The translations under genes and the position numbers were made by a program. This document shows, piece after piece, positions 32,649-34,706 of a DNA stretch of 64,000 bases. How positions within the stretch are numbered: the stretch's first letter is position 1; each line of letters begins with the position of its first letter. Origin of the DNA: Candidatus Bathyarchaeota archaeon (GTDB lineage: Archaea > Thermoproteota > Bathyarchaeia > 40CM-2-53-6); the NCBI GenBank assembly GCA_963706285.1, contig CAVPLU010000004.1:352001-416000 (forward strand). Reading direction: 5' to 3'. The notes under the pieces are model-generated. The model was not told the origin of the DNA. It made no database searches and saw only the letters and a program-made list of their open reading frames with translations.

Positions 32649-33965
32649 GTGAGAATCCACTTAGGAATTGACGACACAGACTCGCTGGCAGGCGGATGCA
32701 CCACTAGAATTGCAGCAAATCTAGTTTCGATACTAGATTCGAAAGGAGTAGCCTTCCTAGACTATCCAAATCTCATCAGGCTCAACCCAAATGTCCCTTG
32801 GAAGACAAGGGGAAACGGAGCAGTCTGCCTCAGGATAGAATCGAACCTAAACACTGAGGAGGTCCTTGAGCTTGCTGCGGAAGAGATTGAGCGGAACGCA
32901 AGACTCGGCGACCCAGGCACAGATCCAGGCATCGTTGTGCTTGCGGGCGCAATCCCATCAGATCTTGAAGAATTCAGTAAAGAAGCGCTCACACGCGTTG
33001 TCACACCTCGCGAGGCGGTGTCTGCGATTTCGAGAGTCGGGGCCGAGGCACTGAGCTACGGCTCGATCCAAGGAATTGTCGGTGCACTCGCGTCGATCGG
33101 GATGCCATTAGAAGATGACTATACTTTCGAGTTAATTGCGTACAGGTCAGATGATTTCATTGGAAAACCGAGGCTCGTTGACAATGAGTCAGTGGTGCGG
33201 ATGAATAAGGAAATGGAGCAAGTCACATTCAACAATGTTGATCCGGAAACTGGAAGAATCCTAATCACTCCGAGAGGGTCCGATCCGATTCTATGCGGTG
33301 TAAGAGGAGAAAGCCCGGAGGCTGTACGCAAGGCATTTCATATGCTCAGAATCAGTGAACCAGTCAAGGCTTGGATGATCTTCAGAACTAACCAAGGGAC
33401 CGACGCCCATCTGACTAGGCGCTGCAGGATTGCAGAGCTGCAAGATCACTCGTCGATCGTCGTTGAAGGCACCGTGAAGGAGAAGCCTAGAACGATTCGT
33501 GGAGGTCACGTGATTTTCGTTCTTGAGGATGAAACGGGCTCGGTCAATTGTGCGGCGTATGAGCCTACAGGGAGATTCAGAGAGACTATTAGGCAACTGG
33601 AAGTTGGAGATCGAGTGCGGGGATTTGGAGGCATGAGATCCGCCGGCAAGTCGATCCCGAGGACTCTCAATCTGGAGAAGCTTGAGACTCTCAAGCTTGT
33701 TGCATGCACGCAAAGCCGCAACCCTGTGTGCCCAAACTGTGGAAAGCGAATGAAGTCAGCAGGCAGGAGACAAGGTTATCGTTGTGAACGTTGTGGAAGC
33801 CACGCAACATCGAAGGTCCAGCAAGAATCTAGTAGAGATCTTGTGAAACGAATTTATCTGCCGCCACCGAGAGCACATCGTCATCTAACGAAGCCGGAAG
33901 TCCGTTATTTGAGAACGCGCACGGAGATCAGCGGGCCGCCATCGCCGAAGTGGCATTTTCCGTGA
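32649..33965 (+). CDS. tiaS: tRNA(Ile2) agmatinylcytidine synthase
   Basis: GIDDTDS..GGCTT, RLNPNVPWKTRGNG, TNQGTD, OB fold, Zn ribbon, HLTKP. Confidence 0.95.
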   Translation: MRIHLGIDDTDSLAGGCTTRIAANLVSILDSKGVAFLDYPNLIRLNPNVPWKTRGNGAVCLRIESNLNTEEVLELAAEEIERNARLGDPGTDPGIVVLAGAIPSDLEEFSKEALTRVVTPREAVSAISRVGAEALSYGSIQGIVGALASIGMPLEDDYTFELIAYRSDDFIGKPRLVDNESVVRMNKEMEQVTFNNVDPETGRILITPRGSDPILCGVRGESPEAVRKAFHMLRISEPVKAWMIFRTNQGTDAHLTRRCRIAELQDHSSIVVEGTVKEKPRTIRGGHVIFVLEDETGSVNCAAYEPTGRFRETIRQLEVGDRVRGFGGMRSAGKSIPRTLNLEKLETLKLVACTQSRNPVCPNCGKRMKSAGRRQGYRCERCGSHATSKVQQESSRDLVKRIYLPPPRAHRHLTKPEVRYLRTRTEISGPPSPKWHFP

Positions 33966-34120
33966 TTACAATTTATCGGAGCATCCGAATGCCTGCGTGA
34001 TGGTCGCGTTTGCGATCTTCTCTTGCAGACGAGTATCGCTCGCTTAGTGCTTGGCTATTGTGGACTCTAGAAGATGCTGCGGCTTTCGCAAGATGGTTTG
34101 GTGGAGACGTTACGGACCAA

Positions 34121-34265
34121 TGGTATTCCCCCAGAACCGCTTTGCGCGGTTCTGTGCGGGGGGTGGATCTTCGGTCTTTCGTCAGACTTTCGAACCACCG
34201 ATCTCAGGGTTTCCCAGGAGGCTCATATGAGCCCTGCGGGTTAAACCTGGCTACCCCACCCCGCT
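34121..34265 (-). tRNA. Initiator tRNA-Met(CAT) with introns at 37/38 (34211-34225), 59/60 (34168-34188) and 71/72 (34126-34155)
   Basis: After splicing: A1:U72, AGCGGGG/CCCCGCT, three G:C pairs in the anticodon stem, TTCGAAT loop, ACCA end. Confidence 0.92.
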
Positions 34266-34313
34266 GTTCTGAGATCTCCGCACGTCTCCGAGCCAAGACT
34301 CTCATGTCCAGAA

Positions 34314-34326
34314 GTTAAAGGTTTTC
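34314..34326 (-). promoter_or_regulatory. Putative BRE/TATA promoter of tRNA-iMet
   Basis: GAAAACC TTTAAC, placing the start near 34289. Confidence 0.55.
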
Positions 34327-34706
34327 AGGATAGGTTAGGAAAGCTGTCGGCGAAAATCCACGGATTCAATCCGGTCGTTCGCCGACGATGCACACTGCCT
34401 CATCATTACTCATCCGGCGAGTCACTGAGTCTCTCATCATCGTCTTTGTGGTTATCTGGCCGCCGTCGGCCTAGTTAGGGCACAATTTGTTCCCGAGGCC
34501 TGAATCGTTTGCTCAAAAATGACCGTTTCAGGCTGCTGCCTGTGCTGCTGCGCTTGTTATAAGCTGTCAGGGACGTGTGATGCGCTGAGCTGTGCCGACT
34601 CTGATCAGCAGAGTGCCTGCAAATTAGGCGTTCCTCTATCAATTCCCGCATGATTCCTTAACGCTTTTTCATCCAGGGGTGTACTCATAGCCTCTGACTT
34701 GGTGCT

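Follow-up and report, generated by a model that had tools for sequence, protein, structure and literature searches.

The window analyzed here, a 64,000-nt stretch of contig CAVPLU010000004.1 from a Candidatus Bathyarchaeota archaeon, carries the 16S rRNA, 23S rRNA and RNase P RNA genes and, on its minus strand, an initiator tRNA-Met gene that is predicted to consist of four exons and three introns (Table 1). The initiator gene lies between a TiaS gene on one side and an unassigned ORF on the other. TiaS, recognized by its FLD, TCKD and zinc-ribbon domains, is the agmatidine synthetase that acts on tRNA-Ile2(CAU), and its gene converges on the initiator gene; the proximity of TiaS to a CAU tRNA on which it does not act is probably a coincidence.

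Table 1. Positions in the window of the initiator tRNA-Met gene, its predicted exons and introns, and neighboring elements
Feature	Position	Strand	Description
TATA-like TTTAA box	34314..34318	-	54 nt upstream of tRNA position 1; putative promoter, giving a long leader
Leader strand of leader-trailer helix	34277..34289	-	GGAGACGUGCGGA
Leader element GAUCUCAG	34269..34276	-	Complementary to tRNA nucleotides 41-48 (CUGAGAUC, 34207-34200)
Initiator tRNA-Met gene	34265-34121	-	145 nt; minus-strand letters match those quoted in the initial annotation
Exon 1	34226..34265	-	tRNA positions 1-37; 40 nt, including three extra D-loop nucleotides
Intron 1	34211..34225	-	15 nt at 37/38; relaxed BHB
Exon 2	34189..34210	-	tRNA positions 38-59; 22 nt
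Intron 2	34168..34188	-	21 nt at 59/60; strict hBHBh', outer helix formed by the T stem
Exon 3	34156..34167	-	tRNA positions 60-71; 12 nt
Intron 3	34126..34155	-	30 nt at 71/72, between C71 and U72
Exon 4	34121..34125	-	TACCA = U72, A73, C74 C75 A76; 5 nt
Trailer strand of leader-trailer helix	34103..34116	-	UCCGUAACGUCUCC
TiaS gene	32649-33965	+	

Structure of the gene and of the in silico spliced tRNA

The 3' part of the gene reads, on the minus strand, ...CCACC CCCC GC^A CAGAACCGC GCAAA GCGGTTCTG GGGG AA^T ACCA, in which the proposed cuts are marked by ^. Intron 3 is thus made up, in order, of a single A, a 9-bp hairpin (CAGAACCGC/GCGGUUCUG, loop GCAAA), the tetranucleotide GGGG, which can pair with C66-C69, and AA. 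Removal of the three introns in silico (15, 21 and 30 nt) leaves 79 nt, in which ARAGORN identifies a flawless tRNA-Met(cat) cloverleaf with all stems perfect. The spliced 79-mer has a 7-bp acceptor stem that includes A1:U72, followed by A73 and an encoded CCA. Its CAU anticodon is combined with three consecutive G:C pairs at the base of the anticodon stem, which is the rule for initiator tRNAs, and the tRNA is assigned to the initiator class on these features. The pair A1:U72 is itself described as a hallmark of archaeal initiator tRNAs (PMC8450103).

The initial annotation had proposed an initiator tRNA with three introns, one of them at 71/72 and leaving a last exon of 5 nt, and this proposal is supported both by the ARAGORN cloverleaf and by the conservation of the insertion within a single genus, described below. 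Its statement that removal of the third intron restores A1:U72 is likewise borne out by the spliced cloverleaf, which has A1:T72. A split or permuted tRNA gene was ruled out, as the four exons are collinear inside the gene. Standard tRNA finders had been expected to call the gene truncated; instead, neither ARAGORN nor the Rfam tRNA model returned any match at all to the unspliced locus, so genomes of this group will seem to be without an initiator tRNA.

Distribution and conservation of the 71/72 intron

A BLAST search of 60 related genomes yielded full-length matches, at 89-95% identity, in 7 of 9 further genomes that belong to the same genus; the two that gave no match are 77% and 69% complete. 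All seven of these genes carry an insertion of 29-30 nt at 71/72. In each of them GGGG-N-N-UACCA directly follows the hairpin, and UACCA, which corresponds to exon 4, is conserved, while the next 3-4 nt are variable. The sister genera and families of the order share the exons and read CCCCGCUA uninterrupted at 71/72 in 21 of 21 genes (locus L022 was left out, its start motif not having been located), which marks the 71/72 intron as a gain specific to the genus. On these comparisons, the predicted intron is a conserved, genus-specific gain.

The initial annotation had called for a BHB-aware search of related genomes. Pattern scans placed the 71/72 intron in many more genes. An exact-pattern scan of species-representative genomes returned 25 matches (7 Bathyarchaeia initiator genes and 18 chance matches), and the same scan of metagenome contigs returned 82 (47 full initiator genes, one truncated copy, L132, and 34 chance matches). 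The combined total is 62 loci with 42 distinct gene sequences, in which the exons are essentially invariant and the introns vary; exon 1, for example, shows one substitution in one variant and is otherwise invariant across 41 variants. Both scans require GGGG and UACCA, and the invariance of these two motifs is therefore informative only in the seven relatives found by BLAST. A looser pattern (CCCCCGC, 12-40 nt, GGGGNNTACC) was applied to 401 Bathyarchaeia genomes and found genuine only in 8, all of the same genus and the source genome included. Eighteen further matches to the looser pattern, in 16 genomes, were rejected, as they are not tRNA ends.

Within the source genome, signs of intron transposition were sought, and introns 1-3, the leader and the trailer were each found to be without a second copy. 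A screen of the same genome for other introns in the 3' strand of the acceptor stem covered 38 T-arm-like sites, 25 with a CCA at the expected offset and 13 without; no such intron was present among the 13, in a screen that misses tRNAs with an interrupted T loop.

Copy number and other tRNA genes of the genome

The initial annotation had also asked for a check on any other iMet gene. Neither BLAST with the spliced sequence nor motif scans turned up a second initiator-like gene in the source genome, which is 89.2% complete with 7.47% contamination, figures that make a second initiator gene in the unassembled part possible. Exactly one match is present in each of the seven same-genus genomes that have one. 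The other CAU tRNA gene of the source genome, at C4:222230-222340 with a duplicate on C20, carries two introns and has G1:C72, which makes it of elongator type.

The completeness and contamination of the genome, together with the failure of standard finders to detect the gene, might be taken to indicate that the locus is a decaying or non-functional copy and that the working initiator gene lies in the unassembled part. We regard this as very unlikely, as the exons are essentially invariant over the 42 variants while the introns and flanks drift, a pattern that indicates purifying selection, and as neither the single match in each of the seven same-genus genomes nor the searches of the source genome point to another initiator-like sequence.

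Several further observations concern tRNA genes elsewhere in this genome and in its order. Two tRNA genes on C20 (C20:1503-1613 and C20:9022-9127) are near-exact duplicates of those at C4:222230-222340 and C4:230573-230678; the duplication is probably strain redundancy in the bin, which fits the contamination of 7.5%. Three matches to the tRNA model (C12:81738-81794, C12:74265-74322 and C4:5388-5457) are without an acceptor stem and have a 5' acceptor strand approximately 25-35 nt upstream, which suggests introns near the acceptor/D junction, at about 7/8 to 9/10. Only 16 tRNA matches in 2.1 Mb passed the Rfam cut-off, so introns probably conceal most tRNA genes of this genome. Three tRNA-like genes with long variable arms (C6:70371, C9:95431 and C13:93393) end in ...CCCCCGCA followed by CUUUU, without an encoded CCA; set against the 25 of 38 T-arm sites that have a CCA, they indicate that the genome mixes CCA-encoding and CCA-less tRNA genes.

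In a sister genus of the same family (g4; L024, L025 and L027-L030, at approximately locus position 1500), the initiator gene has four introns, at 29/30, 37/38, 47/48 and 59/60. These are 13-17, 12, 20-21 and 18-21 nt long, with central helices of 4, 3, 4 and 4 bp, respectively, and the mature initiator tRNA is the identical 79 nt. Across the order, the initiator gene has at least five intron sites.

Splice motifs and the predicted splicing endonuclease

At 71/72, the proposed motif has a central 4-bp helix (H), formed by C66-C69 with the GGGG of the intron, and bulges GC^A and AA^U. Both cuts are placed after the second nucleotide of a 3-nt bulge, which is the core feature of an EndA-type BHB. 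The initial description of a 4-bp CCCC/GGGG helix, cuts after the second bulge nucleotide and a 9-bp stem agrees with the strand, which reads as quoted. The motif departs from the strict hBHBh' form in that only its 5' bulge is closed, namely by the 9-bp hairpin of the intron: 3' of AA^U72 lies a single-stranded ACCA tail, and CCACC has no complement there. As the 3' outer helix is absent, the motif belongs to the relaxed HBh'/BHL class, which is described as part of the EndA motif family for (alpha-beta)2 enzymes (PMC5829648).

The initial annotation had the introns at 37/38 and 59/60 folding as BHBs as well. For 59/60 this holds in the strict hBHBh' form, with an H helix of U54-G57 and CGAA that is 97.6% paired and an inner helix in which two of four pairs are changed on both sides. 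For 37/38 it holds only in a relaxed form, in which the H helix (C32-A35 with UGGG; 4 bp, including one G:U; 98.8% paired) is flanked by 3-nt bulges UA^U and AA^A and an 8-nt loop replaces the inner helix. H at 71/72 is paired in 41 of 41 variants (100%), which is partly a matter of ascertainment, and in 7 of 7 unbiased relatives.

These values come from an alignment of 41 of the 43 distinct flanked sequences, L095 and L100 having been dropped earlier for their short flanks; L074 and L099 stand outside the alignment because their leader differs. The intron-3 hairpin is 93.2% paired in this alignment, and four of its nine pairs show compensatory two-sided changes, with columns 168/183 of the stem unpaired in 19 of the 41 variants. 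For the whole proposed pre-tRNA structure, 96.8% of positions are paired, and the covariation score of 0.080, versus 0.054 in shuffled alignments, was reached by 0 of 500 shuffles. A separate pairing is available to exon nucleotides G30-C34 with nucleotides 2-6 of intron 1 (GGCUC/GAGCC; window 34236-34220, minus strand; columns 83-87/92-96 of alignment A1). It excludes the anticodon stem and is kept in 41 of 41 variants, with all four substitutions preserving wobble pairs, and it may delay formation of the 37/38 motif.

The source genome encodes two EndA paralogues, of 186 and 174 aa, each with PF01974/PF02778. The 186-aa protein is most similar to chains 2cv8, 3p1z_B, 3ajv_B and 2zyz_B, which we take to be crenarchaeal catalytic EndA subunits; it aligns gap-free through the loop region and has a lysine opposite K44 of 3p1z_B. 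Relaxed motifs are described as being cut only by (alpha-beta)2 and epsilon2 EndAs, with the use of a specific loop whose conserved lysine is K44 in the Aeropyrum enzyme (PMC5829648). By homology, then, the source genome has a predicted two-paralog EndA of broad-specificity architecture, with a Crenarchaea-type specific loop in the catalytic subunit.

The lack of a closing helix at the 3' site raises the question of whether the insert could be removed other than by EndA at a BHB, for example by end-processing nucleases acting on an alternative fold, or by means of a trans-acting guide. In red-algal permuted pre-tRNAs, end-processing enzymes are assumed to take out an acceptor-arm 'intron' (PMC3400036). 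Such a route is highly improbable here. End-processing enzymes cannot rejoin U72-A73-CCA to C71, and a ligation step is therefore required; moreover, in its H helix, hairpin and bulge sizes the motif agrees with the relaxed motifs that specific-loop (alpha-beta)2 EndAs cleave (PMC5829648), and the source genome encodes an EndA with this loop.

Leader, trailer and predicted folding of the precursor

Both leader and trailer are long and highly conserved in the genus. The leader sequence GGAGACG..CGGA pairs with UCCG..CGUCUCC of the trailer, and 98% of cells are paired across the 41 variants; the covariation score of this helix is 0.132, versus 0.106 in shuffles, and 12 of 500 shuffles reach 0.132. 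In all 8 genus loci the leader-trailer duplex is strong, and in most of 21 others it does not rise above shuffles. A BHB or kink-turn within the helix was considered and rejected, as the internal loop is 1x2 or 2x3 rather than two 3-nt bulges 4 bp apart. The adjoining helix between GAUCUCAG and tRNA nucleotides 41-48 is 99.1% paired and appears in the minimum free energy (MFE) structure as well as in the RNAalifold consensus; it cannot covary, because its exon side never varies. At least 6 nt of GAUCUCAG occur in all 8 leaders of the genus and in none of the 21 leaders of sister genera. In the sister genera, TTTAAA-like boxes lie approximately 33 nt upstream, about 20 nt nearer the gene than here. 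Duplex energies between leader and tRNA body did not separate the genera, by a method that permits long loops.

Folding was predicted using an energy model at 37 °C, without tertiary or protein terms. For the bare 145-nt precursor, a fold with a 6-bp acceptor stem (G2-G7/C66-C71) is predicted at -68.6 kcal/mol, versus -63.3 kcal/mol for the intron-3 motif. The initial annotation had held that the acceptor stem cannot form before splicing; this is contradicted, as six of the seven pairs can form and are predicted to beat the splice motif in the bare precursor. The GGGG of the intron and G4-G7 of the tRNA compete for C66-C69, and the precursor would thus need help to show the motif. The predicted difficulty is the reverse of that first claimed, and the conserved flanks appear to solve it.

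When the native flanks are included, the MFE structure of the precursor shows the motifs of introns 3 and 2 and lacks the acceptor stem; the central 4-bp helix H is then formed with a probability, P(H), of 0.77, and P(G2:C71) falls to 0.004. H is present in the MFE structure of 36 of the 41 variants when these carry their native flanks, and absent in 5. The median P(H) across the 41 variants is 0.705 with native flanks and 0.001 for the bare gene. It is 0.23 when the leader is shuffled and 0.36 when the trailer is shuffled, both well above the bare value. RNAalifold independently recovers the leader-trailer helix, the leader-body helix and both BHBs, again with no acceptor stem. In silico excision of intron 3 turns the MFE structure into one with the 7-bp acceptor stem.

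Two of the 62 loci, L074 and L099, keep the leader-trailer clamp and have in addition a leader insert of approximately 40 nt. The insert contains GGCUGUCUACCCCG, which is antisense to tRNA nucleotides 3-17 and would mask the 5' acceptor strand directly. For these loci P(H) is predicted to be 0.75 and 0.73 with native flanks, and 0 for the bare gene. The leader is predicted to pair with nucleotides 41-48 in 60 of the 62 loci and with nucleotides 3-17 in the remaining 2. That two leader designs lead to one predicted effect speaks most strongly for a role of the flanks in serving the intron. From these models we infer that the leader/trailer clamp exposes the splice motif.

RNA contigs and the possibility of an unspliced 3' end

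Metatranscriptome contigs over 33950-34450 were available from four runs of four studies. They cover the unspliced gene, including intron 3, and contain no exon joints, although an absence cannot be concluded from contigs of this kind, and RNA libraries capture mature tRNA poorly. One of them runs past the putative promoter, and DNA carry-over is thus possible. Two contigs with loose ends at exon 1 were set aside, as they belong to initiator genes of other organisms.

These contigs, which show the unspliced form only, would also be compatible with a lack of splicing at 71/72. The tRNA would then end in ...CCCCGC-A with an A1/A72 mismatch, its 3' end would be made by a tRNase Z cut and CCA addition, and the sequence from the hairpin onward would be a structured 3' trailer. 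The preference of the bare precursor for the 6-bp acceptor stem would fit such a fate, and bacterial initiator tRNAs tolerate a mismatch at 1:72. We nevertheless consider it unlikely. The retention of GGGG-N-N-UACCA in 7 of 7 unbiased relatives, next to 3-4 nt that vary, is difficult to reconcile with a trailer, and the insert sits precisely where the sister genera have C71-U72-A73-CCA. Both proposed cuts fall after the second nucleotide of a 3-nt bulge, and a 1:72 mismatch would forfeit the A1:U72 hallmark that all sister genes keep.

Discussion

The locus is very probably a functional, apparently single-copy initiator tRNA-Met gene with three EndA/RtcB-type introns, at 37/38, 59/60 and 71/72, whose flanks are predicted to form a clamp. 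The GGGG of intron 3 would pair with C66-C69 and stand in for G4-G7 of the tRNA itself. The 5' cut would be made in the bulge G70 C71^A, which the 9-bp hairpin of the intron closes, and the 3' cut in AA^U72, which is followed by the free ACCA tail. Ligation of C71 to U72 would then create the A1:U72 pair and attach the discriminator and CCA.

The GGGG of the intron can be viewed as a decoy of the 5' strand. Before splicing, the 5' strand of the tRNA would compete for C66-C71, leader and trailer would form the clamp, and the leader would act via masking or topological exclusion. Both leader designs would keep the acceptor stem unformed until intron 3 is out, upon which the RNA would switch to the 7-bp acceptor stem. 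It is a reasonable inference that splicing gates end maturation and charging. A more far-reaching possibility, which we offer tentatively and hold to be somewhat doubtful, is that the precursor is a programmed RNA switch: clamp and leader would hold it in a non-tRNA fold, the only one in which the splice motif forms, and excision would license processing and charging. The licensed steps would be RNase P cleavage, 3' trimming, removal of the 37/38 intron and charging, and the two leader designs with one predicted effect would mean that flank and intron have co-evolved. Such a switch, if real, would represent cis-acting RNA chaperoning of tRNA splicing and would make the supply of initiator strictly EndA-dependent.

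The synthesis of every protein requires the initiator tRNA, and this is the only gene for it that the searches detected. If the proposed splicing is correct, the 3' end of this tRNA (U72, A73 and CCA) is joined to the body by splicing only, and an aminoacyl-accepting end is created by splicing and not by end trimming alone. EndA-type introns would then extend as far as the final acceptor-stem base pair on the 3' side, and the gene would offer a concrete example of flanks that steer a pre-tRNA into the fold needed by the splicing enzyme.

Non-canonical intron positions in archaeal tRNAs are given as 20/21 to 59/60, with 3/4 as an extreme case (PMC4090602), and three introns are given as the maximum for an archaeal tRNA gene in the sources consulted (PMC4033280, PMC4390854, PMC8450103). 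tRNAscan-SE 2.0 is described as extending candidates by 60 nt in order to catch introns near the ends, and for Asgard archaea a small number of acceptor-stem intervening sequences is noted in a 2026 preprint. An intron at 71/72 was not found described in the literature searched, in which position strings are not text-searchable and which did not extend to the primary intron catalogues; a text search of the literature for acceptor-stem intron phrases returned nothing relevant for archaea.

Of the known systems, the pre-tRNAs of Cyanidioschyzon merolae resemble this gene in having several BHBs per precursor (PMC3728597). The order of BHB removal in C. merolae follows motif stability and position, with 37/38 last (PMC3728597), and the folds predicted here likewise show the 59/60 and 71/72 motifs first. 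C. merolae is a eukaryote, however, and its introns are reported from the D stem, D loop, variable arm, T stem and T loop only, with none in the acceptor stem and no leader clamp described (PMC3728597).

A likeness is also seen in the non-canonical BHB introns of the Thermoproteales (Sugahara et al. 2008, as described in PMC4090602 and PMC4033280), which are also short, occupy non-canonical sites, number up to three per gene, have relaxed HBh'/hBH motifs and occur in hosts whose (alpha-beta)2 EndA carries the specific loop. The acceptor-stem cases documented in those accounts are in the 5' strand, whereas the intron described here would lie in the 3' strand, one nucleotide before the discriminator. 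The present gene differs further in that it belongs to Bathyarchaeia and in that a genus-specific leader/trailer architecture accompanies the intron.

The permuted initiator tRNA-Met gene of Thermofilum pendens (Chan, Cozen and Lowe 2011, PMC3218864) is likewise single-copy and essential, its tRNA depends for maturation on BHB processing at 59/60 and 37/38, and it too is described as having an unusually distant promoter and a long leader. The T. pendens gene is circularly permuted (PMC3218864), whereas the gene described here is collinear with an added intron at 71/72. What is new in the bathyarchaeal gene is the genus-specific leader/trailer architecture and, with it, a specific prediction of how a splice motif comes to be exposed.
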